This document shows, piece by piece, positions 1,723 to 31,834 of a stretch of DNA of 64,000 nt. How positions within the stretch are numbered: position 1 is the stretch's first letter; each line of letters starts with the position of its first letter. The DNA lies in the NCBI GenBank assembly GCA_036172245.1, contig JAYWIR010000091.1, positions 186,001 to 250,000 of the forward strand, read 5' to 3'. The notes beneath the pieces are model-generated. The model saw nothing but the letters and a program-made list of their open reading frames with translations, was not told the origin of the DNA and made no database searches. Position numbers and translations under genes: made by a program. This DNA is from Raillietiella orientalis (lineage: Eukaryota).

Positions 1723-2556
1723 AGGGGGTGGCGTGTAAGTCTTCAGTGTAATATTCTTCAGAATAGGGGGCACTCCGGGATAGGTGTCCGCCCTTTGAAT
1801 CCAGGAAGGGCTCCGAGTCTGTTCCTCCCACGCTTGGGGAGGGATCCCCTCGGACGGAGGGTACGCACCTCCCACCCTGGTTGTCTTCAAAGATGAACCC
1901 CGAAAAGAATCTCCTTCCTCATTCTCTCTGGAGGAACACCCTCCTAATAAGGGATGTTCCTGTCCATTTCAATTTCTCCCGAAAAAGCCCGGAAAGGAGC
2001 TGCTTGTAGGAATTTCTTCTCCGGAGGTAACCCGCAGGGGAACCGTTCCTTTATTTATTCTGAAGAGAATCCCAAGGGACGCTTTCGAATTTCAGAAGGG
2101 GTGCTGCAGCTTCCCGCAGGGGAAAAGCTCTCGCTTGCTTCCTTGTGCTCTCTGTGAAGGGGCGATGACACGCAGAAACCAGCCCCCGCAACAGGGGTTC
2201 CGCTTCTTTGAACAACTGGAGAGGTGCCCGTGAGGGCTCCTGCTCCTTCTTGAAAGTGGAGGGCTCCCTCGGTGAAGGGTCCCGCTCCCCTTCGCACGAC
2301 AGGATTGGTAACTCCCCACTCCTGGATTCCTGAGAGGACTTGATGGTCCATACCCATTGTTACGGCCCTCATCGGTAGGCCTCCGGCTTTATCCATTGCC
2401 AGGGATAAAGCCGGAGGACACGCCCGTATGTCTTGGCCAACCTGCGCAATCTTCCAGGAAAAAGTCGGAACCCAAACGACGCAGTGACGACAGTTATCTA
2501 CCGAAGTATTCGAACCCGCGACGCACGATACCACACGCGGAAGCCTAATCCACAAG
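1723..2556 (-). pseudogene. Possible highly degraded ORF1 remnant (zinc-knuckle-like region and low-complexity tail)
   Basis: LWIRLPRVVSCVAGSNTSVDNCRHC...QVGQDIRACP loosely resembles the LW...CxxC..GH...C..C...GH...CP pattern of other ORF1s here. Confidence 0.35.
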
Positions 2557-10280: not shown

Positions 10281-10294
10281 TCGAAAGCTTTACG

Positions 10295-11734
10295 TTAGCT
10301 AGAGCGGACGTGTTTCCTCGGTGCTTCTCGTGCCAAGAACCGTCCCTAGGTGTAGGCTTCGTGTGTGGTGGTGGTCGATCAGGCAGCAATGCCTGACACG
10401 ACCACCAGTGCGTGTCAGCGGGCGGTGGCAACGTCGCCTCCTGAAGAAATGGAGTGCCAGGTGGCGGCGGCAACGACGCCTCTAGAGAAGGTGGAGTGCC
10501 AGAAGGCGGCAGCAACGTTGCCTCCAGTGGAGAAGGAGGTGGAAGCGTCCGCCCCCACAAACCCGGTCCCCGCTCCAACGGGAGCGTGGAGCGCCGTCGT
10601 GTCGGAGCCATCGCCTGCAGCCGCGGCGGAACTATCTGCCTATGTCGAAGAGGGGTATAACCGATCACCATTCTACAAGGTATTAAATTTTGTATTCTTC
10701 TGAGTATGCGCGCGCCTTTTAGAAGGGGATGCGCGCTCTCGATGTTAAAGAGGAGCAGCTATGCGCTGTGACCATTCGTAGATAGGGGCAGGACGTAGAG
10801 GTGATCTGCAAACATGCAGATCTGGCCCAACGTCTGCTTACAACCCCCGTGGTAATGGGGACACGCAGACTCATTCCTGTTACGGCGGACCACAGTATGG
10901 TGGTCCACCTTTTAGGAGTTACCGCGCGGGTGCGGAAAGAAGAGTTACGCGCCGCGTTGGGAAAAGAAGGCACGGTCCATGCAATATGGAACAATCCTAG
11001 TCCTTTCGAGGACTATACCACAGTTTAGTGCGGCCTTACGGCTACCGTTGTAACCGTTCGGGAGGGCTCTACCTTTCCCCACAAATTGGTAGTCGGCGGA
11101 GAAAGCGTCGACCTCTGGTACGTGGGGAAGCCCAAATACTGTGGCTTCTGCAACACGTCGGGACACCTCAAAAGGAGGTGCCCCAACGTACAGTGCCTAA
11201 TATGCGGGACAATGGGCCACACGAAGGAAGTGTGTCCACAATCCGCTGTGGGCGTGTATTCCGCGAGGAACCTAAAAAAACGCACGCGGCTGCTACAGAA
11301 AAAACTGCCGTTGAAGGCTGCCGCTCAAGCTGTGCCACCCACTCCCGTGGTCCAGGCCTCAGCCGACACTCCGGCAACGAATGCCGAAAAGATCGACAAA
11401 ATCGGTCAGGTGTCGGAATGGCTAGAAGTCACAGCGAAAAAGAAAAAAAAGTCGATGAAAGAACGACGAATGGAGAACAAGCTCGCCTACCAAAATAAAA
11501 AACAGCAGGTTAGCGAGAATATAAAAGAATGCAGGCTCGTCGTGGAACGCGCCCCGCCGAACACCGCAAGGTAGAAATCGCTGCTACCGACGAGCAACCC
11601 ACTGTTGAAAATGTCAACAGCGTGGGTAGCAAACCGGCGGAAGCGTTCGTCATCGAGACCGTGATCGATGACGCCGCCTTCGAGCGTGCGGCGGAGGATC
11701 CGCCTGCATCGTTGCAGCCAGCCCCCTCCAAGGC
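10295..11734 (+). mobile_element. Family A copy 1: 5' end and ORF1 (ATG 10389), 3' part lost
   Basis: Starts TTAGCTAGAGCGGACGTG; ORF1 with CGFCNTSGHLKRRC and CLICGTMGHTKEVC knuckles; colinear with 31835-33850. Confidence 0.9.
10420..10540 (+). repeat. 39-bp (13-aa) coding tandem repeat in family A ORF1 N-terminus; ~3 copies here, ~4 at 33580-33725
   Basis: AVATSPPEEMECQ / VAAATTPLEKVECQ / KAAATLPPVEKEV. Confidence 0.85.
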
Positions 11735-13329
11735 CATTTGGAGGACTTTTTTTCCTTCACCCCTTAAAGGGTAGTAGGAAAGCGCTTTCTTGTGTGTGGT
11801 GTTTTGTGTACATCGTAAGTGTCCAATGGCCACGACGCCAGAGGACACCGCGATGGAGGTGGGAGTGGGGGAGGCTAGTTCGCCCCACAGAATACTGGAG
11901 CAGAGGCAGCCGCCCCGGAATCATCCCCGGCCACGCCGAGGACATGGAGCGCCATGGTGGCCGCGCCCAGCGCAGAAGCCATGGCGGAGATGGCCGCATA
12001 CAAGGCCTCCGGGTACAAGCCATCGCTTGTCTACCAGGTAGGCAACTTGTTCGACGGCCGGACAGCGCACGCCTTCAGCAAAGCGTTGAAGGACGCGAAT
12101 GTTACAGAGAAGGATCTGGACGGCCTCTCCGTCCTCAGCGGCGGGCAGCGGGTCGAGGTGGTCTGCAAAGATGTCACCTTGGCTCACCGCCTAATCCATG
12201 CGCCGCTGAACGTAGACGGCCGCAAGATCCTGCCAGTATCCATGGACCGCTTCGTGGTGGTCCACATGACTGGCATCACCAGCCGCATGACGCGGTCAGC
12301 GGTTGGTGAGGAATTGAGAAAGTACGGTGAGGTGCACGCACTGTGGCCGAAACCCTCCATTTTCGACGGCTTCGATAGCCATTTTGGTGGGCAGGCTGCA
12401 GCGCGGGTCACCGTACGGGAGAATTGTGGGCTTCCCCACAAACTACAGGTGGCGCAAGAAAACGTCGACCTGTGGTATGTAGGAAAGCCCCGGTATTGCG
12501 GGCATTGTGATACCGTGGGACACCTACGTAAAAGGTGTCCCAATATACAATGCCATTTGTGCGGGAGCGGGGCCACGTTCGGCGCGTGTGTCCCAAACGC
12601 CCCCCCCCGGTTCCCCCTGCCGCGAAAAAAGCGCAGGAGAAACGTGCTTCAAAGGTCTCTAGACCTAAAGTAGAAAAGGGCCAGCACAAGCTGCCAACAC
12701 CTCAACCTCCGGAGCGTAAGCCGGAGGATAAACCTTCTGAAACGGTGGAAGGCGAAGAGGGATGGCAGCTTGTAGAGGCCAGAAAGCCGAGGAAACTCCC
12801 ACCCGCGGAGAGCAAAGAGCGCAAGACGGCCGGTAAGCCGAAGAAACCCGGTCCGCGCTCGAAAACTTTGCGCGAGTGCACGGTAGCACTGCAACGAATC
12901 GTCGTTCCCGAGATTGCCACCCGGAGCGTCGATCCTCCCCTTGCCGTTTCCGCTGCGCCCGAGGCTCGCGACAGCGAACCCTCTGTTTACACAGAGGGTG
13001 AGCCGCGCGACATAGCGGCGGTCGAAGCCGCGGACGCCGCGTTCGCGCAGGCGGCGGAGGAGCTCGCGGTCACGCTGGCCGAGCGTGAGAACCCCTCGCG
13101 CAAGGCCGTGCGAAGGCCGGCTTTGGCGAAGAAGGCCCCCAAAGGTGAGTTAGACCTGGGGGCTGGAAGCACATCCTCCTACTCGGAGGCACCCCCCAGG
13201 AAGTCGGAACGCAAGTCCCAGAAGCCCAGGAGGCGCCTCCCCTCCACCAGCGAGGAGGAGAAGACGGAAGCCGTCGCCAGCGTGGGAAATTCGGAGGAGG
13301 AATTCCCACGCTCGGAAGCCGTCGATCCG

Positions 13330-13495
13330 GCCACCCCCATGGAGGAGGGTGAACAGGGGGGTGAAGTCCCTCCTGCAGGCGCCGACCCTGAAAAGCCCGC
13401 CCCCATGGAGGAGGGCGAACAGGTAGGCGCGACTCCACCTGCGGGTGATCCGGCCGACGCGCCGGCACCGATGGAGGAGGGGGACCAGGTGCCTT
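13330..13495 (+). repeat. ~66-bp coding repeat (PMEEGEQ..., 3 copies) in family C ORF1 C-terminus
   Basis: PATPMEEGEQGG / KPAPMEEGEQVG / APAPMEEGDQV; related copies at ~44340-44495 (minus). Confidence 0.8.
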
Positions 13496-14048
13496 CAGCA
13501 CCTGACCCCCCTGCTCCACCTAGCGTCCCGCCCCAGCAGGTGGCGGACGCCGCACTGCCATCTTCCCAGGAGTAACACCTGGGCTCGCCAGTCGCCGTCG
13601 GATTCGCGCGGCCTGTTAAAATGTCAACGGGCTGCGCGACAACGGTAACAGGCGAGATACAGCCGACACCCTGCGGGAGTTCGACCTGGCCCTGTTGCAG
13701 GAGATCCACGTGATCACCGCGGCAGACGTCCAGGAGATCGAGACGATCGCGGGGGGTCGGCTGTACTGGCAACGCGGCATCCGCACCACCTGCGGGGTCG
13801 CGTTCTTCGTGAAGCCGGCCATCGACGCTGCCGTGAAGGGCGTGCGCTTCGATGGCGACGGTCGGGTCGGTCAGCTGACTCTCGGCTGGTCCGACTTGAT
13901 CGATCTGATCGTCACGAATGTGTACGCCTTAACCAATCAAAAGGGATACAGCAACCGTACCCGGCTGCTTGAATCCCTGAAGCGCGACTGGCTGGCGAAC
14001 ACGAGCGTGCGGAAAGCTCACCTGATACCGGGAGATTTCAATCGAGTG

Positions 14049-14056
14049 CGGACGTG
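14049..14056 (+). promoter_or_regulatory. CGGACGTG 5'-terminal motif (DPE-like putative internal Pol II promoter element); representative copy
   Basis: Also at 10305-10312 (+) and, on minus, ~29020 (TGGACGTG), ~33833, ~37854, ~43767, ~46146, ~55577; matches DPE consensus RGWYV. Confidence 0.65.
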
Positions 14057-14121
14057 TTTTTCTTCGCTCTCGTCTCCGTGCTTTCATCCGCTTCATCTTG
14101 GCGTCGTACATTTTGACGACG

Positions 14122-16038
14122 ATGTCGACCCAACTTGAAGCTACTGAAGTTGGAGGAACAGCATCCGGATATGCAATCGCGGAACCGACGGCCGCCTCCA
14201 CTTCGTCTTTCTCGCCAATGCAGAGGAGTTTTGCTGACGTTGCTGCCACAGCAGCCGTCAAAGGGAAACCACTCGACGAGTCGGAGTTGCGGGCATACGT
14301 AGCCCAAGGCTATAGACCTGCTCTCCGATATAAGGTGAGTGGTTTTCTTTCTGCGCGCGACGGGAATGAGTTCAACGATGAACGGACCCGTGATGACGTG
14401 CGGGAGGAGGACCCTCTCGCCATTATGCCCGTAAAAGACATGGGCTATTTCAAAGTGCGTTGCAAAGACGCTGCACTTGTGCAACGCTTGCTGCGCACAC
14501 CGTTGTCGATCCGTGGCCAGAAGGTCTTCCCGACCGCCATGGACGACTCATTTGTGGCGGAGATTTTCGACATCGTGTCGGAAATCTCCGATATTGATAT
14601 TCGGAACGCTTTGCGAAATTCGCCACGGTCCATGCGCTGTGGAGGGTGCGTAGCAACCTCAAGGACTTCCCGTCCATACACAGCGGAGTCGCTGGAGTCC
14701 CGCTTACAATGCCTGATCGCCGTCGGCTGCACAGCAAATTACAGATGAAAGACACGGTCGTTCACCTGTGGTTCGTGGGCAAAGAAAGAACGTGCGAGCA
14801 ATGCTGGAAGGAGGGGCATTGTATGGATGAATGTCTCTCTGGAAAAAGCCGTTATTGCAAACTATCCGGGCACCAATTGTAAAATTGCCCGGATCTTTTG
14901 CAAAAAAAGGCAGCCGCGGAGCTCCATCTTAAAAAACAAAGCGCGGATAAAAAGAAAAAATTTGCGAAAAACCTGGAGACCCCACGGCAGAAATTCCTCA
15001 AAAACGCGAGGCGGAATATCGCCACAAAGTAGCAGGAAACCTCGCACGCGAAGCCCTGCGCGCCCCCTCTCGCGGCAGGTAAGCCGCAAAAGAAAGAGTG
15101 CGGAGAATCCGGGGCAATGGTAAGTCTCCCAAGGCGCAATAGCTGTCCTTCCCAAGCACGCCCGGCTCTTTCAGAGTTCGAGCAACCGGCGGGGACGTCA
15201 ATGGACAACGGCGGTAAGGACACTTCCAGTACCGTTAGATCCAATCCTTCACCTCCTGCAGTGACTGAGAAGCGCAAATCGGGTAAGAAGGGTTGTGCAG
15301 TGTCGACTTCGAAAGTCGGCAAAAAAGAATCCGCGTCGCGATCCAACACCGCGAAAGCGGAGAAAAATCTCACGCTGTCGCAGTCGGAGAGCAAGCTCTC
15401 GACTGGCGCGGATGCCATGCCAACGAAGGGATTAAAAGCCCTTCCGAAAGCAGCGTCCATGACGAGCGTGTCGGAGCCATCGAAAGTGCTCCCGTTTAAA
15501 GACACGGATGGCTTGAAAGATGGCAATGGAGCAGAATCTCCATATACGGCGCCACGCGAAGTGAGGAACCGTAATGAAGTAAAGAAGACTTCAGCAAAGC
15601 TCCCTCGTGCAACTGCGCGTGAGCACGCTGAGAACGCGCGCGCCGGGAAAGCAGCCGTCACCAAAAGCGATGGAGACGTAAAAATACAACAGGACAGCTG
15701 TCAATCCAGCAGAACCTGTCACTACTTCCCGGAAGGCCGAAACTCGATCGAACATGCGTCTGTCGAATTCCGAAATGGATTCCGTCCCGATCACCGAGAC
15801 GAGGACAACTCGTTCGAAAGCGTGTGCGCGCCGATCAAAAGTAGGCAGCCAGGCAACGCGAGCCGCGAAGCCACGCGAAGTCTCCACGAAACCCGACGGG
15901 GTTAAGCCTGGCGTGGATGCATTACATGCATGCAGCACGACAGAGGACGGTGGCGAACGTCCCCTCCAGCCAGTCGTGCAGCTCGCCGTCTGCTTGCCGG
16001 ATAAAGCGAGCAAAAAGCCGCCGCCTTCCCAGCAGTAA
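14122..16038 (+). pseudogene. B1 ORF1 (gag-like, two CCHC knuckles, long low-complexity tail), frameshifted
   Basis: MSTQLEATEVGG...CEQCWKEGHCMDEC...YCKLSGHQL...PVVQLAVCLPDKASKKPPPSQQ* spread over several frames. Confidence 0.9.
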
Positions 16039-19000
16039 TGCGGGGAATGGCGTCTTCTCGTCGTCTGTCCGTAACGTGTTGAAACGTGAACGGACTACAG
16101 AACGATGAGAAGAGACGATTAGTAGCCAACGCCCTGCGCCCCTTCGACCTCGCGCTCCTGCAGGAGATTCACGTAATCTCCGACGAGCAGAGAGCCGAAA
16201 TCGAGGAGCGCGCAGGCGAAACGCTACATTGGCGGTGCGACGGCGCACACACGTGCGGCGTCGCGTTCCTCGTAAGAGGAAAAATGGCGGAAGCGGTGCG
16301 TAGTGTTCGTTTCTATGACGACGGACGGATAGGCCAGCTTGTCATAAAGTGGTCCGATTCCATCGATCTCGTCGTTACGAACGTCTACGCGCCGAGTGGA
16401 TCTCGCTACCTCGGAGAAAGAGTAGCTTTCTTTGGTGAGGTGCAGAGTTACTGGCTCAAAAACTTTGGTTTCCAAGTGGCGCACCTCGTTGCTGGGGACT
16501 TCAACGTCCGCCTGCTCTCCGACGATTGGAGCCGCCCGAAAGAGCGCGCGCTGCCCATCGAGATGTGCGCGTCCGTGCACGCCGCCAACTTGATGGTCAG
16601 CAAACCTGGAATGGAAAGATCGCTCGATCACGTTTTCCTCGATGAAAACCTGCATTCGCGTGTGGGAGGAGAGTTAGATTGTTGACTAGGCTTTCTGACC
16701 ACCACAGGTTGGAGTTTGAGATCCTTCCGCCAGGCAGGGTACCTCAGTTGCAAAACTGAAGGATGCAGGCGGATTGGCTTAGCCAACCGGTGGCTGCGGA
16801 GCATCTACGTGGATACCTCCGAGGCTTTGCCATTCAAGAACTTGCGGACTGGGACGATCTCAAAAGATCTGTCCGCGAGTTCTGCTGCCAATTCCCCTTG
16901 CACCGGCTTCCACGCGGTTTTGGAGAGGGTGTGGCCAACAGTAGAGACTTTCTGCAGGCCCGCACGTGTTCGAGACGCGCCTATGTCGGGCGTCTGGCAG
17001 AGTACAAGGCGAGGTCCGAGCACCAGGTCTGGCAGTCCGGAGCAGCATGCCTGTTGGACGACAAGGGCCAGGAATGTTCGGCCCCAGCCGAAGTACGCCG
17101 CATTGTGAGACGCTATCACTCCTCTCTGTACGCGGAATCCCCGACGAAGGATATTCTTTCTGAGATACTCCTGTCTCAGGATGCTCGTGTTGTCGGCGAA
17201 GAGGAACGCGAACGTCTCGACGAGCCCTTCACGGCGGATGAATTTTCGTGCGCAATCGTTCGGCTGAAGAGACGAAAGGCGCCAGGCGAGGATGGGCTCC
17301 CTGCAGAGTTTTATCAGTGCTTTGCAGTGGAGCTCATTCCCTTGTTGCTGAAACTCGCGACGCTGATGAGTGAATCCGGGAATGTCCCTGATTCCTCCCG
17401 CTCAGCGAAGGTGCGTCTCATGCCGAAAGGCGTAGACTTGCGTCAACTTAACAACTGGCGTCCGATCACCTTGTTGAACTCGGACCTCAAGTTGTTTTCC
17501 AAGCTGTGGGTCGAGCGGTTAGGAAGTTTCGCGGAATCTGTGGTGAGCCCGCAACAAACCTGCGCGGTTCCGGGACGATCCCTGGAGGCGAACGTCATTT
17601 TCGCGCGTACATGGATGCAGCTGCAGGAAGTTGTGGCGCAGCAAAGCCAGGCTGCTGCGAAAGTCACTGCCGCAGGCAAGAAGAACAGGCGCCGACGGCA
17701 GGAGGGAACGCCAGGTGCCTTGTCGGTGGCAGTCGATCTCCTGAAGGCGTTCGACTGCGTAAACCAGAAGCTGCTTTTGGAGCTTATGGAACGCCTTAAG
17801 TTCCCGGTGCAACTCCTGCTGTATTTGCGCGCGAGCTGGCGCCACGCGCTAACCTGCATTACTTTCAGCGGCTGCCGCGTGTATGGTATTCCCGTTCGTA
17901 GCGGCATCCGTCAGGGCGACAGCTTAAGCCCGTTGCTCTTCAGCATCTTCTTTGGGTTGGCGCTAAGAGCATACAGGCTGATGCTGTCTTACTTGCCAAG
18001 CTCCTGCCCGGGAACGCCTGCCGTGGCCGCGTACACTAATAACCTGCTTCTTCTGCTCCCCATGTCCACCCCGGCGTCCAGTGTCGAGGATTTCTTCGAC
18101 CTGATTCGTCGGGGAGCGGGCGTGAGCGTGAACAGAGAGAAGAGCGTGAACGTTCCTGTGGGTACGTCGTCGGAGGGGCACTCCGACTGCATCCGCCTGG
18201 GGATCCCTACTGGCGGGTACTTTGAGTACCTTGGCGTTCCGTTGGGCTTTCGGCGCAGCCGAAGCGTGGGCGGACTGTCTTCAGAAAGCAGAGTTGGCCA
18301 TCAGCCCGTTCTTTAACGGCAAGTTTACCTTGAAAGAACGGGCGACTATTTGGAACACCATCGTGGCCCCCCTCCTCCGTCCCCTGTTCTTTGTTTTGGA
18401 CCCCCCCTATGCGGCAAAACAGCGGGCTAAGCGCCTGCTCAGGAACGCTCACTGGGGTCCAGCGAGATCCAGGATCCGCCTTAAAGATTTCTTAGCTCCG
18501 CGTCTGGATGCTGGTTTGGGTATCTTGACAATGGAGCGAATCGGACTGCAGGTGCAGTTCCGACTGCTGGCACTGTGTGCCCAGCAATGGACATCCCCCC
18601 TGTGTGTGCAAGCCCGCATTCTCCTGCGGAGATGCGCCGGCAGCGGAGGATTTCTCTCGCTTTTGCCGGGTACTCAATACAGGAAGCGGGGTTTCGGGTT
18701 TCCATTGCGGCAGTTGACCGCACTTCTGGAAGCACACCCTTGGATGTCCTGCCGCCCAATGAACTTTGAAGCTTGGCGGCAGGAGTCTGTTGAATCCTGG
18801 GCGGCGTTCCAAGGAATACGCCCTGAAGATCTTCGCCCCCTGCGCCAATTTTTTCCACGATCCTTGGAAGAAGTACTGCAGGACGAGGTGAAGTTTTCTA
18901 CCCTTGCTGCCACGCCTCTTGCCGCAGCGCTGTCTGCCCTCAGGGCAAAAAACGACAGTTACCAACCGGCGAGGTGGGAGGTTTCCTGCACGATAGCGGG

Positions 19001-19628
19001 AAGAACCAAACTCCTTGGCACCTGGAAGACAAGTGAGTTGGCGGACGCCGCCACTCTTCGTGTTACTGCAAAGGGACTCCTCCGGTGGACAGAAGAACTT
19101 GCTGTCACCCCCGAAGAACTTGTAGTCCCTCCACAGTGTATGGACAGTTCGCTGCTCCCCCTTGCTTGGAAACAAGCCGTTCTGCTTTTCGTTCACTGGG
19201 GTTTTCAGTGCAACGAGCGTTGGCATCGTGACTCCGGGGGACTTGCGTCTGAGAATTGCGTTCGGTGCGGATCGACGGAGTCGATTCCGCACCTACTTCT
19301 GGACTGCGGTGTCCTACAAGGACTGTTGCGTAGGCTGGCAACAGCACGAATGCATCCCGTGGACACCGCAAGAGACTTGCTGCGACGATTCTTCACGCCG
19401 AGCGGGCTTTCACTAAGCGCAAGGATTGCAACCATCGGTTGCATACGCGCGATAGTTTCCGTCCGCCAGGCGTTGGTAATCAACGGACGGCACCAAGAGG
19501 TAATCAGCAAAGCATCCTTCTACATGGGAGCATCCGCTAGATGGCCTCATTTGACAGAGGAGACAAAGAGTAATCTCGCCGCAATACACCGCCGGTTGAC
19601 ACACCCTCATCAGCGGACAACCCGGTGA
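16038..19628 (+). pseudogene. B1 ORF2 (APE endonuclease - RT - CCHC), few disablements; YADD altered to YTNN
   Basis: ORFs 16086..16685, 16763..18316, 18222..19628: QEIH, NVYAP, GDFN, LDH, KAPGEDGLP, NWRPITLLNSD, DLLKAFD, QGDSLSP, CVRCGSTESIPHLLLDC. Confidence 0.95.
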
Positions 19629-19911
19629 TCATTGCTCTACCCTCCATAAACTAAATATGTATTTTCTTTTTACACCCGCATCCCCATAGGCTCCGGAACA
19701 TGTTAGGTGCTCATCGTATAAATCCCCGTGAGTACGGAGCCTAACCAAAAACCCGTTACCCTTCGCTCCAGTTTTTGATTTTTGTTTGTTTCCCCTCATT
19801 CCTCCCGCGCTGCGAGCGGTTTGTTTACCAGGCCTGCGTGCCGGTAATTTTTCTATGTTCTCTGTCGTTCTGTTGGTTAAGGACATTGTCCCTGACCAGT
19901 TTATTATTATT

Positions 19912-19941
19912 AATAAACGCCCCGGCGTGACCGGGTGATAA
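19912..19941 (+). terminator. 3'-terminal AATAAA plus CCCGG..CCGGG stem-loop; representative copy
   Basis: Recurs at the end of every 3'-intact element, in several lineages with otherwise dissimilar 3' UTRs. Confidence 0.75.
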
Positions 19942-22900
19942 ATTTCAATGTCCGCCTGCTAACAGGTGAGCCGGAAACACATGTGAACGCGATGAACGGG
20001 TTGTGCGCCACGATGCGTGAGCGCAACTTGTTCGCGTGTGAGAGAGGAATGGTCCGCAGCATCGACCACGTCTTCCTGGACGCTGACCTGTGTTCACGAG
20101 TCGGCAAACGGGGGAGGGTTGCGTCGACGTTGTCGTTCCATTCCCGGTTAATTTTCGAGATGCGGCCTCGCGACAAAGGACCGCCATCCAGGGATTGGCG
20201 TCTGCCGGGGGACTGGACGCGACTCTCAGGTGCGAAGGAAAACCTTCGCGAATACCTGAGAGGCGTCACGCTCCGGAATCTCCAGGACTGGGACCTTTTT
20301 AAAGAATCGGTCCGCGAGTTCTGTGAGAAGTTCCCCCTGGATCGCCTGCCCCCCGGATTCAACAAGGGTGCTCGCAACCATTGGGCCTATTTACAGGCTG
20401 GTAGGTACGCGAGAACCTTTAATGTTCGTCGCCTGGCCGAGTACCGCGCCGGGGCCGAACGCCAAGCCTGGCAATCCGGGTCGGCCAGCTTGCTGGACGA
20501 CCAAGGCCGGGAATGTTCGTCCCCGGCGTCGGTACGGCATCTCGTGCGGAGTTTCTATTCCTCCCTTTACGCCAGGGAGCCCCCGGATCGAAACGCCTCT
20601 CGGCGCTTGCTTCCGGATGGCGCCCCGGCAATAGGGGAGGAGGAGATGAAAAGCCTCGAGGAGCCTTTTACCACCGGCGAAATTCTCGCCGGTATCAAAA
20701 GGCTCAAGAGGCGTTAAGCTCTAGGGGAAGACGGCTTGCCCGCGGAGTTCTTTCAGAGCTTCGCGGAAGAGCTGGCACCCCTGCTGCTTAAGTTGATCAG
20801 GCTGATCCGAGACGAAGGCGATGTTCCCGCCTCGTTTCGGTCAGCCTGAGTGAGGCTCCTTTTGAAAGGGGGAGACCTCAGGGATTTAAAGAACTGGCGT
20901 CCGATCACGATCGTGAATACGGACGGCAAGTTGATAGCAGGGCTATGGGCTTCGCGTCTGGGGCAGGTGGCAGAATCGGTAATTAGCCCGGAGCAGACTA
21001 ATGCTGTTCCCGGGCGAAGTATGGATGCCAACCTCTTCTTCGCAAGCACATGGGTGCACTTGCAGGGAAGAGAAAAGAAAGGGATAGGGAAAGTCGGCAA
21101 CCCCACATTGGGGCCGCAAGCCGGGCTGGGAAGGGACCCCCGGGCGGGGAAGGGGGCCCTAGCGCTCGCAGTCGATCTCCACAAGGCGTTCGACTTTGTA
21201 GACAAGGAACTCCTCTTGGAGCTCCTGGGTCGCATGGGCTTTCCACCCTCCCTGATTTCCTACCTGCGCTCTTGCTGGCGGAATGCGATAATTACGGTCT
21301 CTTTCAGCGGTCACAAGGTGCATGACGTGCCGGTGCGGCGGGGCATTAAGCAGGGAGATAGCCTCAGCCCCCTGCTATTCAGCACCTACTTTGATTTGGT
21401 GCTGAGAGCGTACAGGGTGACTCTAGCCCCATTGCCGAGCTCGTGCCCCAGCACGCCCGCCGTTACAGCGTACGCCGACGATCTTCTGCTCTTGTTGCCA
21501 ATGTCCACCCCGGCAAAGGCGGTCGGAGACTTCTTCGATCTGCTCAGTCGCAGGAACTGACTGCAGGTTAACAAGGCGATGTCGTCGGTTGTGCCAATAG
21601 GAGCGGCGTTGGCAGGGCAGCAGGACTGGGTCCGTGATGGGATCCCCACGGCGAGGTGCTTCAAGTACCTTGGTGTGCCGTTGGGGGACTACTCCCCTGC
21701 GGAAGCGTGGTCCAGCTGCCTCCAAAAAGTCGAGACGGCGATCGGCCCGTTCCTGGAAAGCAAGTTTCACTTGCCGGAACGGGCCGCGGTTTGGAACGCC
21801 TTCGCGGCCCCCATCCTCCGCCCTTTGCTTTTTGTTTGCCCCTTCACCGTGGAATCCAAGAAGAGGACGAAGGACCTCCTCCGTATCGCCCTTTGGGGCA
21901 AGGGGAGGCCCCGAGTCTCACTGAAGGACTTGTGCGCTGCGCGTTGGGACGGCGGTCTTATCCTCCTGACGCTGGAGCGCGTGGAGAAGCAGCTGCGGTG
22001 GCGAACCCTCGCCATCGAAGCGAAGATGTGGAGCACCCCTTGGTGCACTCCGGCCCGCCTTCTGGCCAGGCATGTGTCCCGGTGCGATGGACTCGCGTCT
22101 TTTTTTTCTGAGCCGTGGCCCGAAGATGCAAAGATGCGGCCTACTGCTCGGGCGCATGGCAACATTGGCCAAGGAGAACAGCTGGATGGTTTGCTGCCCA
22201 GCCAACTCCCCCGCCTGGCTGGAGGAGAATATTGGAACGTGGGCAGTAGTTAACCAGAGAAGCCACGAGACGTGGAATCGTCTCCCATGCAGCCCCTACG
22301 CCCGCTGCACGCTGCGAAATCTCCTGGAGAGTCCAGCAAGATGCACGTGGGCAGAGACGACCTGCCTAGCTACGGCGCTGCCCTTCCTCAGGAGGCACTT
22401 CACAGCAGACGGACGCCAAGGTGGCAAGTCTCCTGCTGCATCGAGGGACGCGAAAAATTGATCAGCGGCTGGACAACAGGAGAACTAGCCGACGCCACGA
22501 CCCAGAGCGTCCAGCCGCGAGGATTATTAAGATGGGACGAGCTGCTCGCTATCCCCAGGGATGAGCTGAAGTGGCCCCCGGTGATGAAAGAATCCAGGAT
22601 CCTGCCCCTTAAGTGGCAAGAGTCGGCGTTGCTTCTGTTGCACTGGGGTCTACCCTGCAACGCGCGCCGCTTCCACTGCACGAGGGGAGCTGTGGATCCC
22701 GCGTGTGCCAGGTGCGGGGAGCGGGAGTCGCTTCCCCACCTTATTGTGGATTGTGCTGCCCTCCGACCCCTTTGGGAACGGTTTGGGACGACCCTCGGGC
22801 TACCTACAGGCAGCACACCCAGAGACGTTCTTCGGCCCCTCTTCGTGAAGGACGCACTGCAGCCAGCCGCAGCCATCGCAGCCTTGTGCTGCATCCGAGG

Positions 22901-23283
22901 TATCGTGGCGGCATGGAGCGACGCCAACAACGAAGGAGTGGGTCCACAGGGGAAAGATGTCATCCCGTATGCCCAACGCTTCTTGCGGAGAGCTGCCGGA
23001 TGGCCCCAACTGGGGAATATGCAGACTGACCTCGAGGGCTTCGTTCGACGAATGGGCCCTCCCCACAGCGACCAGTGATCCCTTCCCTGCCCTCCAACTT
23101 CTTTTTGTTTGTTTCTTGTTATTTTTCTCTTTGTCTTATCCCCATCTGCCTTCCCTGTCGGAGAGTGCGACGCCGGGCTGCGTTCCGTTGTCCCGACAGG
23201 TCGCGTGTTTACGGCCGTGGTGGGGCCTCGTACCACGCATATAGAGTTTACAAATAAACGCCCCGGGCGTACCCGGGTGACAA

Positions 23284-23517
23284 CGCCGAATCCCCATTGC
23301 AGACGTTTCACAGGGAACTTTTTGCAGAACTCCCGGACCGAGTCCTTAAATAGATCCCAATACGCGAGTCTCTGGAGGCTGACGCCTCGCAGGAATTCGC
23401 GAAGATGGTCTTTCGCTCCTGACAGGCGCGTCCAGTCCCCTGTCATACGCCAATCATTGGATGGCGGTCCCTTGTCGCGAGGAGGCATTTCGAATAATAA
23501 CCGGAAATGGTCCGTCA
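23284..23517 (-). pseudogene. Short inverted family C ORF2 linker fragment (TDHFR to GFG), host of the C1 3' end
   Basis: Minus strand reads MPPRDKGPPSNDWR...VREFCKKFPVKRLQWGFG. Confidence 0.85.
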
Positions 23518-26299
23518 GCCGGGAACGTTCGTCCCCGTCTGCGGTACGGAATCTCGTGCGGTGTTTTTATTCCTCCCTTTACGCCAAAACACCACACGAA
23601 CAAGACGCCTCGCGACGAATGCTCATGAGTGGTACCGTGGGGATAGGGGAGGAGGAGAGAGAAAGCCTCGATGAGCCTTTCACGACAGGTGAAATTCTCG
23701 CCGTTAACAAAAGGCTCAAGAGGCGTAAGGCGCCAGGGGAGGACGGCTTGCCCGCAGAGTTCTTTCAGAGTTTCGCGGAAGGGCTGGCACCCCTGCTGCT
23801 TCAGCTGACAAGGCTGATCGGAGACGAAGGCCATGTTCCAGCCTCGTTTCGGTCAGCCAGAGTGAGGCTCCTTTCGAAAGGGGAAGACTTTAGAAATTTG
23901 AACGACTGGCGTCCGATCACGATTGTGAACACGGACGCCAAGTTGATTGCCGGGCTGTGGGCTTCGCGATTGGGGCAGGTGTCCAATTCCATAATTAGCC
24001 CGGAGCAGAGTTACGCTGTTGCCGGGCGAAGTATGGAGGACAACCTCTTTTTCGCGAGCACGTAGATGCACGCGCAGCGGAGTAATAAAGAAGGGAAAGG
24101 AAAAATTTTCAACCTTACTTAAGGGCTGCCAGTGGGACAGGGTAGAATCCCTCATGCGGGAAAGGGGGCCTTAGCGATCGCAGTCGACCTCCATAAGGCA
24201 TTCGACTGTGTTGACCAGGAACTCCTATTGGAGCTCCTGGTTCGCATGGGCTTCCCACCCTCCTTGATTACCTACCTGAGCTTTTGCTGGCGGAACGCGA
24301 TAATCTCAATTACTTTCAGTGGAAAAAAGGTGTTAGGCGTGCCAGTGCGGCGGGGCATAAGGCAGGGAGACAGCTTCAGCCCCCTGCTTTTTAGCACCTA
24401 CGCTGAGCTGGTGCTGAGAGCGTACAGGGTGACTTTGGCCCCCTTGCCGAGCTCCTGCCCCGGCACGCCAGCTGTAGCGGCGTATGCCGACGATCTTCTG
24501 CTCCTCTTACCTATTTCCACCCCGGCGAAGGCAGTCGGAGATTTCTTCGAACTGCTTAGCCGTGGGGCGGGATTACAGGTTAACAGGTCGAAGTCGTCAG
24601 GGTTGCCAGTTGGAACGACGTGGGCAGGGCAGCAGGACTGGGTCCGTCTTGGGATCCCCACATTGAGGTGCATCAAGTACCTCGGTGTGCCGTTAGAGGA
24701 CTTCTCCCTTGCGGAAGCGTCGTCCAGCTGCCTCCAAAAAGTCGAGACGGCGATCGGCCCGTTCCTGGAAGGCAAGTTTCACTTGCCGGAACGGGCCGCG
24801 GTTTGGAACGCCTTCGTGGCCCCCATTCTCCGCCCCTTGCTTTTTGTTTGCCCCGCCCCCGTGGAATCAAAAAAGCGGACGAAGGACCTCCTCCGCATAG
24901 CTCTTCGGGGCAAGGGGAGGCGCCGAGTCCCACTGAAGGACTTGTGCGCTCCGCGTCGGGACGGCGGTCTTGGCCTCCTGACACTGGAGCGCGTGGAGAA
25001 GCAGCTGCGGTGGCGAACCCTCGCCATCACAACGAAGATGTGGAGCACCCCTTAATGCACCTTGGCCCGCCTCCTGGCCAGCCGTGTGTCCCGGTGCGAT
25101 GGACTCGCGTCGTTTCTTCTGAGCCGTGGCCGGAAGATGCGAAGATGCGGCCTACTGCTCGGGCGCATGGCAACATTGGCCAAGGAGAACAGCTGGATGG
25201 TTTGCTGCCCCGCCAACTCCCCCGCCTGGCTGGAGGAGAATATTGGAACGTGGGCAGCAGTTAACCAGAGAAGCCACGAGACGTGGAATCGTCTCCCATG
25301 CAGCCCCTACGCCCGCTGCACGCTGCGGAATTTCCTGGAGAGTCCAGGAAGATGCGCGTGTGCAGAGACGACCTGCCTAGCTACGGCGCTCCTCTTCCTG
25401 AGAAGGGCACTTCACAGCAGCCGAACGCCAATGTGGCAAGTCTCCTGCTGCATCCAGGGACGCGAGAAGTTGATCAGCGTCTGGACAACAGGAAAACTGG
25501 CAGACGCCACGACACCGAGCGTCCAGCCGCGAGGTCTAAGAAGATGGGGCGAGCTGCTGGCCATCCCTATGGATGTGCTGAAGTGGCCTCCGTTTCTTCA
25601 GGAATCCAGGATGCTGCTCCTTAAGTGGAAAGACTCGGCGTTGCTGTTGTTGCATTGGGGGTTACCCTGTAATGCACGCCGCTCTCACTGGACTAGAGGA
25701 GTTGTGGATCCTGCTTGTGTCAGGTGCGGAGAAAGGTAATCGCTCTCCCACCTTATTGTGGACTGTGCTGCCCTTCGTCCCCTTTGGGAACGATTTGGGA
25801 CGATCCTCGGTCTTCCTACGGGCAGTTCCCCTACAGACGTTCTTCGGCCCCTCTTCGTGAAGGACGCCCTGCATCCAGTCGCAGCCCTTGCAGGCTTGTG
25901 CTGCGTCCGAAGCATCGTGGCGGCATGGAACGACACCAACAAGGAAGGAGTGGGTCAACCCGTGAGGGATGTCGTCCCATATGCCCAACGCTTCTCTTGG
26001 AGAGCTGCTGAATAACCCCAACTGGGGAATGCACAGATGGACCTCAAGGGCTTCCTTCAACGGATGGGCCCTCCTCTCAGCGAACAGTGATCCCTTCCCT
26101 GCCCCCCAACCTCATTTGTTTGCTTGCCTTCTTGTTTTCATTTTTGTTTTTCCCCATCCCCTTTCGCTGCCGGGGAGTGCCACGCCGGGCTGCGTCCCGG
26201 CGTCCCGGTAGGTCCCGTGGGTAAGGCCGTGAGCGGGGCCTGGTACCGCGATTGTAGAGTTTTTTATAAATAAACGCCCCGGGAGTACCCGGGTGGCAA
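23518..26299 (+). mobile_element. Family C copy 3, 5'-truncated (RT to 3' end)
   Basis: KAPGEDGLP, DLHKAFD, AYADD (~24480); colinear with ~20510-23283; terminus AATAAACGCCCCGGGAGTACCCGGGTG-GCAA. Confidence 0.92.
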
Positions 26300-29033
26300 C
26301 GCCGAATCCCCCGGGCAGACGTTGCACAGGGAACTGTTCGCAGAACTCCCGGACCGAGTCCTTAAATAGGACCCAATTTGCGAGACTCTAGAGGCTGACG
26401 CCTCGCAGGAATTCGCGTAGATGTTCTTTCGCTCCTGACAGGCGCGTCCAGTCCCCTGAAATACACCAATCCCTGGATGGGGGTCTCTTGTCGCGAGGGC
26501 GCATCTTGAATAATAACCGGGAATGTTCCGACAGCGCCGATCCAAGTGTCCCTCGTTTTCCGACCCGTGTGCACAGGTCTTCGTCGAGGAAGACGTGGTC
26601 CACGCTGCTGACCATCCCGCATATTTCTGTCAACAAGTTGCGCGCGCGCATGGCGGCGCACAACTCGTTGATCGCGTTACCCTGTGCTCCATGCTGATCT
26701 GAGAGCAGACGGTCGTTGAAATGCCTTGCTATCAGATGCGCCTTTCGCACGTCCGCGTCCACCATCCATTCGCGCTTCAAGGTTTCCAGAAAGCGTTGCG
26801 CTGCTGGTATCCCTGTTTACAGCTAGGAGCGTACACATTGGTGACGATGAGTTCGATTGAATCGAACCATCTGAGAATCAGTTGGCCGATCCGTCCGTCG
26901 TCCCCAAAGCGCACGCCCTTTACGGCCGCGTTAATGGCTGGCTTTAGAAAGAACGCGACCCCACAAGTGTTGCGGGCGCCGCATCGCCAGTACAACCGCC
27001 CTCTTGCGACCGTTTCGTTCTCCTGGGAGTCTTTTGCGGTGATCACGTGGATCTCCTGCAAAAGCACCAGGTCGAAATCTCGCAAGGTGGCGTCTGTATC
27101 TCGTCTGTTTCCGTCGTCGCGCAGCCCATTAACATTCCAACTGGCCGCGCGGATCCGACGGAGACATGCGAGTCCAGGTGTTATTCCTAAGAACCTGGCG
27201 GTGGTGCTCCCGCCACCTTTTGGGGCGGGTCGCTGGACGGGGTTGGCGTCTTGCTAACCAACTCCCCATCCTTCTTTCGTGCCGACGTCTCCGGCTGCCC
27301 GTGCGAAGGGGGTGTTGTTCGTACCTGTTGGCCCACATCCATTGGTGCGGGTGTTTCAGGTTCGGCGGTTTCAGAGGCCATTTCTGACCCCTGGTTACCC
27401 TCCTCCATTGGAGTCGCCTCCTCGTGGGCTTCCGCACGTGAGTGATGCTCGACTTGGGCTCCCACACTGCCATCCACTGGTTCTTCCACCAATGCATCCC
27501 CCTCGCGCGGAGGCGGAATGCACCTTCGGGGTTTCTGGGATTTTCGCCCCGCTTTCCTTGGTGGTGCTTCCGCAGAGAACGATGCACTTCCGGCCTCCCG
27601 GTCCGACTCACCTGCGGAAGCCTCTTTAGCCGCTGCATGCCTACGCAACCCCTTTCGCAAAAGTTTCTCGCGTTCGGCAAGCGTTGCCGCAAGCTCCTCG
27701 GCGGCCTTCTCGGAAGCTGAGTCCTTGGTTTCGGCGATTTGGTCGTCCGGCTGACCCTCTTCGCAAGCAGGGGTTGGGTTTTCGCGCGCATCCGTCGCGG
27801 CGGGAAAATCGATCGAAGCCGTATCGCCTCCGGTGGTGTCGGCGGGAACGTCAATGCGCTCCAGCGTAACCGTGCATTCTCGGAGAGTTTTTACACCCGA
27901 CACGGATTGATCTTTTGTTCCGGCCGCCGTCTTCTCTCCTTTCTTCGGTACATGCTTGTCTATTTTCTCTTTTTTGGCTTTGACTAGCTGCCAGCCCTGT
28001 TCTCCCTCTGCGGTTTCAAGAAGATTTTTCTCCGATGCCGCGCTTGGAGCTTGGGTTATTGGAAGCTTTTCTCGGCCAGTTTCACGGTTTTCCAATTTTT
28101 CGTTCCCCGCGCGTTTCCCTTGCGCCTTTTTGGCGGCCGAGGAAATTGGGGTGGGGCGTTTAGGGTACACGCAACGGACGTGTCCCTTCTCCCCGCACAA
28201 GTAGGATACGATGTTTGGACACCTCTTTCGGATGTGTCCGACCGCATCGCAGTAGCCGCTATACCGTGGCTTGCCCGCATATTAGAGGTCTACCGGTTCT
28301 CCCGCGACCTCAAGTTTGTGGAGTAGCTTCGCTTCGTTTTTTAGGGTTACGCGTGCCGCGGCGAGGCCCCCGAAGTGGCGTCCGTAGCCCTCAAAGATTG
28401 TGGGCTTCGGCCACAGCGCGTGTACGTCCCCGTACTTACTTAATTCTGCTTTTACGGCAGTGCGCGTCATGCGCTTGGATATTCCTGTCAAGTGGACCAC
28501 TACCGAGTGGTCCATTGACACCGGGAAGATCTTACGGCAGTCCATGATCAGCGGGGTATTTATAAGGCGATCGGCCAGGCTAATGGTCTTGCACACCAGC
28601 TCAACCCGCTGCGCCCCGCTGAGCACGCACAGACCTTCCAGATCTTCCTCAAGGACATTAGCATTTTGAAGCGCTCTGCTGAAAGAGCGCGCCAAGTTCC
28701 CTTTAAACAAAGGGCCTACCATGCATACAAGGGATGGCTCGTATTAAGAGGCCCGATAGGCGGCTTCCTCGGCCATGGCCTCCGCACTGGGGGCGACGAC
28801 CATTTCACTCCAAGTCTTCGCCGGCTGCGAAGACGTTTCAGGGACTATTGCCCACATAGCTGTAGGTCTTGTAGTAGGACTTGCCTTCCCCACAACTACA
28901 TCTATCGCGGTGTCCTCTGGCACGGCTGCCAACGGACACCGACGACCCACTCTTTACACCTGACTACACTGAAAACTCCGGCTGCTTCCCAGACAAGCGC
29001 TGGCGGAGCGACCAAAAAACACGTCCACTCACA
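26300..29033 (-). mobile_element. Family C copy C': 5' end, ORF1 and APE up to the GFG site
   Basis: 5' TGTGAGTGGACGTG; ORF1 PEDTA...WSEMVVAPSAEAMAE...; APE QEIH, NVYAP, VDH; ends LPGGFG. Confidence 0.9.
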
Positions 29034-29046
29034 CCAGGTTTCGGCG

Positions 29047-30379
29047 ATTCCACCCGGATACGCCGGGACGTTTATTGAGAAACATTTCAACGGTCAATAC
29101 AAAACGTGGTACAAGGCCCCACTGACGGCCACGCAATACCGGAACTGCCGGGACACCGGGACGCAGCCCGGTGTGGCTCTCCTCGGCAGTGGAGGGGGAT
29201 GAGGGAGAAAACAAAAATAAAATAAAAGAGAAAAAAAAAATACAAAAAAAAGTTTGGAGGGCCGGGAAGAAATCACAGAAGACTGCTGGGAGCGCCCATC
29301 CTTTGCAGGATGCCTACTAGTTCCATTTTCAGTTTTCCTAGATTCTGCCATCGGGTAGTTCTCTGCAGGAAGCGAGAAGCATACTCGATGACGTCCCTCA
29401 CGATGCAGCCTTCATCTTCGGCATCACTCCCGGCCGCCACAATACCACGAATGCAGCAAAGTGCTGCCAGGGCTGCGGCTGGACTGAGGGCGTCCCGCAC
29501 GAAGACATGACTGAAGACACATCCAACATTTCCACCATCCGGTATCCGAAGGGCTATTTTCAGACGATCCCAAAGAATCTGGACGGCAGGACATTCATCT
29601 AAGAGGTGGGGGAGCGACTTCCGCTCTCCACACCTGGCAAACGCAGAATTTACTCCTTCCCGCGTCCAGTGGAGGCGACCAGCGTTGCAGGGTAGACCCC
29701 AATGCAGCCACACAAGCGCCGATTCTTGCCACTTCAGGGGAAGAATCCTGGATCCAAGTAGAACCGGGGGCCACTTCAGGTCATCCCATCGAATCCCGAG
29801 CAGCTCGCCCCATCTCCTTAATCCACGCGGCTGGAGACTAGGGGTCGTTGCATCTGTCAACTCTCCCATGGTCCAGCCGCTCATCATCTTCTCTCTGCCT
29901 GCGATAGGCAGCAGACTTGCCACCTTGGCTTCCGGCTTTCGTGAAGCGCCCTTTGGAGGAAGGGCATTGCCGTAACAAGAAGTGTGCCTTCCGCCCATGT
30001 GCAACTCGGTGGAAATTCAAGAATTCCACGGAGAGTTCGGCGGGCTTAAAAGCCGACTCGCAGGCAGTTCATCCGTCCTTGCACCTCTGGTTCTGCTTGG
30101 CCCAGGTGCCAGCAGTCTCTTCCAGTCAAACGGAAAAGGTGGCAGGACCACAAACCATCCAGTTATTCTCCTTTGCCAGGGTTGCCATGCGGCCGAGCAG
30201 TAGACCGCATCTTCGAAGCTTCCGGCCAGGGCACAGAAGAAACGATGCGAGTCCTTCGCAACGGGACACACGCCGGGCCAGGAGGCGGGCCGCAATGCAC
30301 CAAGCGGTGCTCCACATCTGCGCTGCGATGGCGTGGGTCCGCCATAGCAGCTGGATTTCCACGCGCTCCAGCGTCAGGA
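29047..30379 (-). mobile_element. Family C copy 5, 3' part, head-to-tail with C'
   Basis: LTLERVE...HWGLPCN...ARCGERKSLPHLLDEC; terminus AATAAACGTCCCGGCGTATCCGGGTG-GAAT; closely similar to ~47775-49107. Confidence 0.9.
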
Positions 30380-31834
30380 TGCAGGCTTGCGCATTCTCGA
30401 CTTAAACAGCATCGAACTGCAAGTGCAGTTTTGCATGCTGCGGCTCTGTGCCAAGCTGTGGTTTACGCCGTTGTGCTTACCCGAACGCCTTATATAGAGG
30501 CGCTGCACGGGAAGAGAGAGATTGCTTTCGTTGCTACCCGAATTTCGGCACACCAGAATAGGGTTTGGCTTCCCGCTGAGGCAGCTGTCCTCACTGCTGG
30601 AAGCCCAAAGCTGGATCTCCTGCCGCCCCATGAACATTAATGCATGGCGGCAGGAATCTTTTTCATCGTGGGCAGCTTCCGAAGGAACGCGCCTGGAAGA
30701 TCTTCGACGCCTGCGACTTCTCTTCAGTCATCAAATGGACGAAGTCATGCAGGACAAGAAGTTGTCGCATCGTCTGGCCGCCACACCACTCGCCGCAGCG
30801 CTGTCTGCCCTCAGGGCAAGCAACGACGGTTGCCTACCGGCGGAATGGGAGTTCTCCTGCAAAATAGCGGGAGTCAGTAAGCTTCTTGGCATCTGGAGGA
30901 CAAAGGAGCTGGTGCAAGCCCTCACCCCTCGGAATCGGGCAAAGGGCCTGCTTCGGTGGAGCGAACATTTAAGTGTGCCCCCCGGAGAGATAGTGGTTCC
31001 CCTCGTTTGTTTGGACAGCTCCGTGTTCCCCCTTAAGTGGAAACAAGATGTGCTGCTCTTTTTACATTGTGCATTTCACTGTAATAGGCAGCGAAGCATC
31101 GTTTCCGCGGGAGCTGCTTTGCCAAACTGTTTAAGGTACGTAGAGATCGAGTCTTTTCCGCACCTTTTGCTGGACTGCGGTGACCTCCGGGAACTGTGGC
31201 GAAGGCTCACTTCGGCCATCATGCCACAAGGAGGCACTGCCATTGATGTGCTGCGGAGCTTCTTCAGCAGAAATGGACTTTTGGTTGGCGCGATTGTCGC
31301 AACCATGTGTTGCGTTCTCGCCATCGTGAAGGCCCGCTACACCCTGGAGTTGTCATCGCAGCGAAGGGAGGCTCACCTGCTTGCAGATCAATTCATGGAG
31401 AAGGCTTCAAGGTGGTCTCATCTTCGTGACAAGGTGAATGAGGACATCACCGGCATACATCGCCGGTTTACACACCTTTGAGAACGGCGTAATCCGGTGA
31501 TCCCTGCGACCTCTCGCCCACCCATACCCCGTCCCCGTTCGCTCGGTAAAATTTCCGGTGCCCATGCTTTTATCACCGTGTCTTCCAGAGCGATCCCAAA
31601 GACCGTTATCCCGTCCTCCTTATTCATTGTTTTTATTTTATTTTGGTTTCTTTGTGTTTTCCGCCCCCCCACACCGTTCAAGAAACTGTTACTCCGGCCT
31701 GCGTGCCAGCAATATTCTCTTCATTCTTGTTAAGTTGTCGGTTGGAAGTTTGGTTCCCAACTGGTTTATATTGTATAATTGCTTTTTTTGGTTATGTTAT
31801 ATGGAATAAACGCCCCGGCGTGACCAGGTGAGAA
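30377..31834 (+). mobile_element. Family I (B-related) 3' part
   Basis: ORF 30522..31481 GFPLRQL...LAATPLAAAL...NCLRYVEIESFPHLLLDC; terminus AATAAACGCCCCGGCGTGACCAGGTG-AGAA. Confidence 0.9.

Follow-up and report, generated by a model that had tools for sequence, protein, structure and literature searches.

A probably sequence-specific LINE at the endonuclease GDFN codons of sister LINEs

We analysed a 64,000-nucleotide stretch of DNA from Raillietiella orientalis (contig JAYWIR010000091.1 of assembly GCA_036172245.1, positions 186,001 to 250,000 of the forward strand), hereafter called the window, and found that copies of one family of long interspersed nuclear elements (LINEs), here called B, are inserted within the codons for the GDFN motif in the apurinic/apyrimidinic endonuclease-like (APE) domain of related LINEs. 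B is probably a sequence-specific LINE of the APE/L1 type with a target of about 12 to 20 bp, GGGAG/ATTTCAAY/GTYCGCCTG, and the existence of this target would follow from what it encodes, namely the conserved catalytic stretch G-D-F-N (V-R-L) in the related elements' endonuclease domain. An earlier description of this DNA, made from its letters and referred to below as the original prediction, had placed B at the GDFN codons, and our analysis confirmed this observation for every element involved. All copy counts given here apply to this one 64-kb window rather than to a genome-wide survey.

The full-length copy B1 is a 5899-bp non-LTR element (one without long terminal repeats, LTRs) on the plus strand (14043-19941), which comprises a 5′ end common to sister families, a first open reading frame (ORF1), an APE domain, a reverse transcriptase (RT), a C-terminal domain and a 3′ hairpin. 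It is bracketed by two copies of the octamer ATTTCAAT on the same strand. The left copy (14035-14042) consists of bases 2 and 3 of the Asp codon together with the Phe and Asn codons of the GDFN motif of its host element, C1, and the right copy (19942-19949) is followed by the host codons VRLLTGE. The left flank is thus read as ...AHLIPGDFN and the right flank as (N)FNVRLLTGEPE in the frame of the host, and removal of B1 with one octamer restores ...PGDFNVRLL... in frame within the C1 endonuclease domain, so that the perfect 8-bp target-site duplication and the clean excision described in the original prediction both hold. Upstream of the insertion, the APE domain of C1 (13620-14034, plus strand) shares 48% amino acid identity with residues 1-152 of the B1 APE domain; downstream, the host continues on the plus strand from 19950 to approximately 23283 with the rest of its APE domain, its RT, its C-terminal domain and its own 3′ hairpin. 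The GDFN motif of the host aligns with GDVN of exonuclease III, and the Asp and Asn of this motif are catalytic residues in the APE-type enzyme family, to which the L1 endonuclease also belongs. The ORF2 of C1 runs 31 codons into B1 and then meets a stop. The insertion splits the host endonuclease, and the host copy, having lost part of its endonuclease and its RT, is predicted to be inactivated.

With matches to the Pfam families Exo_endo_phos (E = 4.3e-10) and RVT_1 (E = 3.4e-15) and the domain order APE, RT and C-terminal domain, B1 matches the layout of an APE-type LINE ORF2. Its ORF1 carries CCHC knuckles and its C-terminal domain a CX2CX8HX4C motif. When compared with solved structures, among which these are the only LINE groups represented, the RT matched human L1 ORF2p (E = 4e-37) and R2 (2e-11). 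A search of the B1 termini for terminal direct and inverted repeats found neither an LTR nor a terminal inverted repeat, and the element also lacks the poly(A) tail that is typical of L1 proper, Zepp and L1-1_CR. B1 itself is a degenerate, dead copy, broken by several frameshifts and by an in-frame stop ahead of its APE domain.

The same codons are occupied elsewhere in the window. A second full-length copy, B2 (37876-43780, minus strand), lies directly downstream of the octamer ATTTCAAT (43781-43788, minus strand), which is preceded by gcgggag in the GDFN codons of a second C copy, C2; the 5′ part of this host extends on the minus strand from its 5′ end motif at 46158 to the GDFN codons (43789-46158). 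The first base of B2 (43780) directly follows gcgggagATTTCAAT (43788 to 43781, minus strand), and its 5′ end is therefore at the position that had been claimed for it in another C copy. At the other end, the last base of B2 (37876) is followed by a single ATTTCAAT (37875 to 37868, minus strand) and then by base 1 (37867) of a third copy, B3, in a head-to-tail tandem around one octamer, again as originally described. B3 covers B positions 1 to about 1861 (approximately 36004 to 37867, minus strand) and breaks off at the abutting 3′ end of a plus-strand LINE, E2.

The third occupied site belongs to a different host. B′ (758-1740, minus strand) represents the 3′ portion of a deeply diverged B-lineage element with 49% amino acid identity to B1 over 216 amino acids. 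Its 3′ end is directly followed by ATTTCAAC (757 to 750, minus strand) and gttcgcctg, which encode FNVRLKRD in the endonuclease of a host whose APE domain from VRLKRD onward and RT N-terminus (12-749, minus strand) belong to a family other than C. In a maximum-likelihood tree of the last ~217 residues, covering the C-terminal domain of 13 elements of the window, B′ joins B1 and B2 with a support of 91/90, which bears out the suggestion that the element ending here is B-related and resides in a different host. In the same 13-row tree C and D are sisters (95/95), and these two families share another target. The targets thus follow lineage on the C-terminal-domain tree, and the target is inherited within the lineage.

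Across these copies the 5′ ends of B start at the same base (3/3), the visible 3′ ends of the lineage abut the octamer (3/3) and all four copies (B1, B2, B3 and B′) are in sense orientation. As in LINEs known to be site-specific, B1, B2/B3 and B′ are found at the same target nucleotide and in one orientation, in a small sample of three target sites. Chance does not account for three insert ends, all of them sense-oriented, at one identical nucleotide position within homologous codons.

The octamer alone is weak evidence, because ATTTCAAY occurs 19 times in the window compared to 4.5 occurrences expected by chance. Five of the 19 are located at B-type ends, and the 14 octamers without a B end therefore imply a recognition sequence longer than 8 bp. 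Endonuclease sites homologous to GD(F)N are present eight times in the window, three of them occupied and five empty. The Asp codon is GAT in all three occupied sites (C1, C2 and the host of B′) and GAC in all four intact empty sites, namely the own sites of B1 and B2, an F-family copy at 49534 and a copy at 5189, the last of which differs from the core target only at the third base of the Asp codon. The fifth empty site, in a C-related copy (26715-26726), has kept ATTTCAAC and is altered at three of four positions upstream and two of nine downstream. The original prediction that the own site of B differs from the target and is unoccupied was correct: the GDFN codons of B1 read GGGGACTTCAAC (16494-16505, plus strand), with three synonymous differences from the target GGAGATTTCAAT, and are uninterrupted, as are the identical codons of B2 (41314-41325, minus strand). 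This distribution fits a recognition sequence of roughly GGGAG/ATTTCAAY/GTYCGCCTG in which the T of GAT may be important. Self-avoidance by B is a plausible hypothesis, with sites that are few and related by descent.

A palindromic target was considered and dropped. A 17-nt inverted repeat (82% complementary; 14016-14032 and 19955-19971) brackets the empty C1 site, and the ungapped self-complementarity of the 56-nt site was not significant (20/56 versus 14.1 +/- 4.8 for random 56-mers). The octamer itself is 6/8 self-complementary, and the inverted repeat around the C1 target may be due to chance.

A mechanism for the insertion of B can be proposed by analogy with R1, Tx1L and L1, on the established model of target-primed reverse transcription (TPRT); the order of nicks, any role of RNA pairing and the protein and bases that would confer specificity are all taken from this model. 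The B endonuclease would first nick the antisense strand, at the left-hand boundary of ATTTCAAT, and the freed 3′ end, ...ATTGAAAT-3′, would prime reverse transcription of a B RNA that is recognised or held by its conserved 3′ hairpin. Read-through sequence (AUUUCAAU) on the B RNA could possibly pair with this primer. A second nick on the sense strand, 8 bp to the right, would then give rise to the 8-bp duplication. Each insertion would regenerate the octamer on both sides, making head-to-tail tandems such as B2-B3 possible.

The 3′-terminal module of B1 (19897-19941, plus strand) consists of AATAAA, a 5-bp stem with a 6-nt loop and GTGATAA. This module is common to all 12 aligned LINE 3′ ends of the window, irrespective of family (for example 19897-19941, 23240-23284 and 49063-49107), with AATAAA in 11 of the 12, a CCCGG/CCGGG stem of 5 bp around a 6-nt loop, one compensatory pair and then GTGA(N)AA. 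The LINE 3′ ends accordingly read ...GGGTGA(N)AA with only 2-6 A and no poly(A) tail, and the conserved hairpin is of the stringent 3′-end type. AATAAA is not known as the usual polyadenylation signal of green algae. The families of the window also have a 5′ end motif in common, GAG(T)GCGGACGTGTTT. The combination of common termini with different targets suggests a single RT-recognition system in which nothing but the choice of target has diversified. At the B1 5′ end, the Rfam search returned nothing credible and therefore no sign of an R2-like 5′ ribozyme.

Instead of a specific protein, the RNA could direct site choice. In such a scheme the endonuclease would be loosely specific, and the target DNA would pair with host-derived read-through or co-transcribed sequence on the element RNA (AUUUCAAU and beyond). 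Insertion of R1 and R2 is sharpened by downstream target sequence on the RNA. B, which has no poly(A) and always lies directly upstream of the octamer, would carry the octamer on read-through transcripts; its sense orientation inside the host ORF makes co-transcripts possible, and its 5′ ends are exact in all three cases. However, the same 8 nt of possible pairing are offered by the 14 unoccupied octamers of the window, and Rfam yielded neither a ribozyme nor any other family at the 5′ end of B. Among the intact empty sites, most differences from the target fall in or beside the octamer, a pattern that recognition by a protein predicts as well. We regard guidance by RNA as unlikely.

The positions of B1 and B2 reflect independent insertions rather than duplication of a C::B composite, because the identity of the inserts exceeds that of the hosts and the step lies exactly at the junction. 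B1 and B2 are 94.25% identical (5896 nt; bootstrap 95% confidence interval (CI) 93.6-94.8), B3 is 93.2% identical to B1 and 93.0% to B2, and the three copies together are star-like with mutual identities of 93.0-94.3%. The flanks of C1 and C2 are 85.5% identical over the 1002 nt next to the junction (95% CI 83.5-87.8) and only about 75% identical further upstream. The original prediction had noted by eye that the C hosts differ more from each other than B1 does from B2, and the bootstrap intervals do not overlap. In the endonuclease part, the C1 and C2 flanks are 84.6% identical compared to 93.7% for the own endonuclease of B1 and B2. Along the alignment of C1/B1 with C2/B2 in 100-nt bins, the last two host bins are at 77% and 83% and the first three B bins at 98%, 96% and 97%, so that the step-up coincides exactly with the host/insert junction. 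Equal divergence of host and insert had been named beforehand as the sign of a duplication; the values are unequal, with 14.5% for the host and 5.75% for the insert, and together with the step at the junction they favour the independent insertions that had been proposed. Within-family identity is highest for B, followed by D1/D2 (91.6%), the F copies (89-90%), C (85%) and E (82%), and B is the youngest layer in each of the two local nests. In the B1/B2/B3 and C1/C2 alignments, transitions and transversions are about equally frequent (160 transitions and 179 transversions between B1 and B2), an unusually low ratio for decaying repeats.

These identities also bear on a spread driven by homology, in which B would have been copied between C copies by ectopic gene conversion or recombination, with the C flanks as arms and no specificity of the endonuclease. 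The hosts are homologous, a dense array of related repeats makes ectopic exchange plausible, and such a spread would reproduce the flanking octamer as well. Conversion tracts normally include flank, however, and identity is only 83% in the nearest 100 nt of flank and 77% in the 100 nt beyond them; because identity rises exactly at the junction, co-converted flanks are argued against. Copying by homology further leaves unexplained both the B2-ATTTCAAT-B3 tandem and B′, which at 49% amino acid identity occupies the same codons in a host family too diverged to have served as a homology arm, and we consider it quite improbable. A segmental or inverted duplication of one C::B composite, through which the shared position would be inherited from a single entry of B, is more improbable still: although one collinear alignment runs through flank and insert (13033-19949 versus 44793-37868, 92.8%) and the nest does contain duplicated composites (for example 20506-23519 versus 23518-26535, 85%), duplication predicts equal divergence and not a step between host and insert, the 3′ contexts are unlike (host after B1, B3 after B2) and B′ resides in a different host family.

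Several points weigh against B as a LINE with a fixed target at GDFN. The copies are few, three of B proper and one relative, all within 64 kb, and both flanks are visible only for B1; for C2 the host's 3′ half is missing, and for B′ the 5′ junction. Every B copy seen is broken, and the activity of B and the specificity of its endonuclease are putative. Two members of the wider B clade are located off this site, B″ near APE residue 41 in antisense and E3 with an unexplained flank; the target is therefore not fixed across the wider B clade. In addition, the outside data described below consist of short contigs, in which a C at 19950 could represent either another C host or a B-B tandem.

These outside data come from the public run X1, which contains 31% of the sampled words of the region and yielded 155 contigs aligned at 85% likeness or more; the findings from it are among the matches listed. 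All five contigs covering position 19950 align across the 3′ end of B and carry C at this position in place of the G of the window. One contig of 1040 nt spans 18921-19960 with 25 differences, another of 3755 nt covers 14016-17761 with 159 differences, and none of six joints among the matches listed skips the B insert. At least one other B 3′ end therefore adjoins the octamer in the X1 sample, with either a C host or another B next to it, and the run adds limited support to the interpretation. By comparison with positions 31790-31870 of the window, the loose contig ends that X1 shows at 19912 and 19943 look like additional copies of the B″ junction. Two further public runs, X2 and X3, gave 0 and 4 short matching records, respectively.

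B is surrounded by other LINEs that appear to choose their sites. Positions 1-56040 of the window are a near-unbroken nest of related LINE fragments on both strands: pieces of the B1 ORFs match APE, RT, C-terminal or ORF1 segments throughout this region in a tblastn search, and self-comparison of the window revealed many partial LINE copies at 75-94% identity. Family F/G is inserted in antisense at the (K/R)AFD codons of the RT in three hosts, E1, E2 and E3 (7576/7579, 33857-33864 and 52405-52413). Its 5′ ends differ, being full length at 33864 and truncated at 52413 and 7579, and G and F1 form a head-to-tail tandem with the 19-nt spacer TCGAAAGCTTTACGTTAGC (10281-10299). F/G is a second site-specific lineage, and arguably a better supported one than B. 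At the (K/R)AFD site of family F, occupied and empty sites of the window showed no clean split of the kind expected from escape.

For C/D, one motif, CGCCGAA(T/A)CC, comes after each of the 3′ ends at ~23283, ~26299, ~29048 (minus strand) and 49107; it is antisense to the codons for ...GFG(E) in the N-terminus of the host RT. The same motif precedes the 5′ ends at 46158 and ~29030 (both minus strand), and its presence at both ends therefore indicates a duplication of about 17 bp. B″ (30354-31834, plus strand), which belongs to the wider B clade and shares its final 30 nt with B1, runs into antisense endonuclease codons at the junction 31834/31835; its target is ...AQEI at endonuclease residue ~41 and not GDFN. 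Not every family is specific: the 3′ ends of family E at 36003/36004 and 5431/5430 have unrelated flanks (antisense B3 ORF1 versus sense endonuclease codons near residue 55), and E seems to be without the strict site specificity of its neighbours.

Taken together, our analysis supports the reading that B is an APE LINE with sequence specificity for an unusual target, and the families in which it is embedded look like a guild of LINE lineages that target one another; the small number of copies within one window limits both readings. Tentatively, this guild could comprise at least four site-specific lineages (B at GDFN in sense, F/G at (K/R)AFD in antisense, C/D after GFG in antisense and B″ at QEI in antisense), through which the LINE island beside the satellite would grow as LINEs parasitise LINEs, and synonymous changes from GAT to GAC at the catalytic Asp might serve as alleles of escape or immunity in an arms race between the lineages.

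The known targets of LINEs, as described in the literature, include ribosomal DNA (rDNA), spliced-leader exons, transfer RNA and small nuclear RNA genes, transposons, microsatellites and telomeres; the specialists named among APE-type LINEs are the Tx1 and R1 clades (PMC4640811). Closest in kind to B are Tx1L and Tx2L of Xenopus laevis (Tx1 clade, L1 group), which are likewise described as APE-type LINEs with a highly specific endonuclease and one target sequence inside another transposable element (PMC1950540, PMC6719617). Tx1L belongs to the L1-like group, and the RT of B is nearest to L1 ORF2p among solved structures. The target of Tx1L is reported as a repeat in the DNA transposon Tx1D (PMC1950540, PMC6719617), whereas that of B is the stretch encoding a catalytic motif in a sister LINE. 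Like B, R1 (R1Bm, for instance) and further APE LINEs specific for rDNA or telomeres have a fixed target, orientation and duplication, precise ends and a multicopy conserved target, and the R1-type endonuclease is described as cutting both target strands (PMC1919474, PMC1950540). In contrast to R1, whose target is a host gene (28S rDNA), B targets the enzyme gene of another mobile element, and each insertion would kill a competitor. Our search of full-text literature found no LINE with a fixed target in the endonuclease codons of another LINE; the original descriptions of Zepp may hold one.

The nest as a whole resembles the L1-type elements Zepp and ZeppL of green algae, which are described as nested copies that insert into existing copies and form tandem arrays at putative centromeres, sometimes flanked by satellites (PMC8226300, PMC3446292, PMC9940879). 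The window likewise is almost wholly made up of nested related LINE fragments between positions 1 and 56040, and this nest borders on a satellite of 276-278-bp units. It differs in two respects: Zepp and L1-1_CR carry (A)n tails (PMC3747384), whereas the elements of the window end in a hairpin and 2-6 A, and a single ZeppL family is reported for Chlamydomonas (PMC9940879), whereas at least five related families occur together in the window.

A fixed target in the catalytic-motif codons of sister LINEs would represent an ecological strategy different from the targets described for other LINEs, which include rDNA, telomeres, small RNA genes, microsatellites and one DNA transposon (PMC4640811, PMC1950540). 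Extensive drift of such a target would kill the element that carries it, each hit would remove a competitor, and the host genome would be spared. B would also provide a mechanism at the nucleotide level for the formation of self-nesting LINE islands next to satellites, which in green algae are candidate centromeres. Moreover, several closely related APE endonucleases of one genome whose long recognition sites differ would form a natural series on how such enzymes read sequence, with relevance for targeted DNA insertion, and the GAT/GAC pattern makes an arms race between transposable elements directly testable.

Relatives of these elements in public data are few. A public protein search returned nine matches, only one of which was close (56% identity, on a 2.9-kb contig), and an Atlas search gave generic RT clusters only. 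A scan of metagenomes for the 3′ hairpin together with the octamer had no matches, and a scan for related loci found four at 24-36% identity, too distant for use. Across the whole window no Rfam family reached the gathering score.

Some parts of the window stand apart from the specific insertions. In the tandem pair 20506-23519 and 23518-26535, which is 85% identical, each unit consists of the 3′ part of a C element and ~235 nt of antisense host RT N-terminus, and the pair is either a duplicated composite or the result of two insertions. The second C copy of this tandem starts immediately behind the host fragment at RT residue ~104, an arrangement that simple TPRT does not account for. Positions 1741-2566, which separate B′ from the following LINE, showed no similarity elsewhere in the window by tblastx and include a long hairpin-like palindrome near 2390-2430. 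At the other end, the LINE nest is directly adjoined by a satellite (56043-64000) of ~28 units of 276-278 bp with 71-82% matches, in which the orientation of the units appears to flip near 59560 and the G+C content is ~40%, compared to 52-63% in the LINE part.

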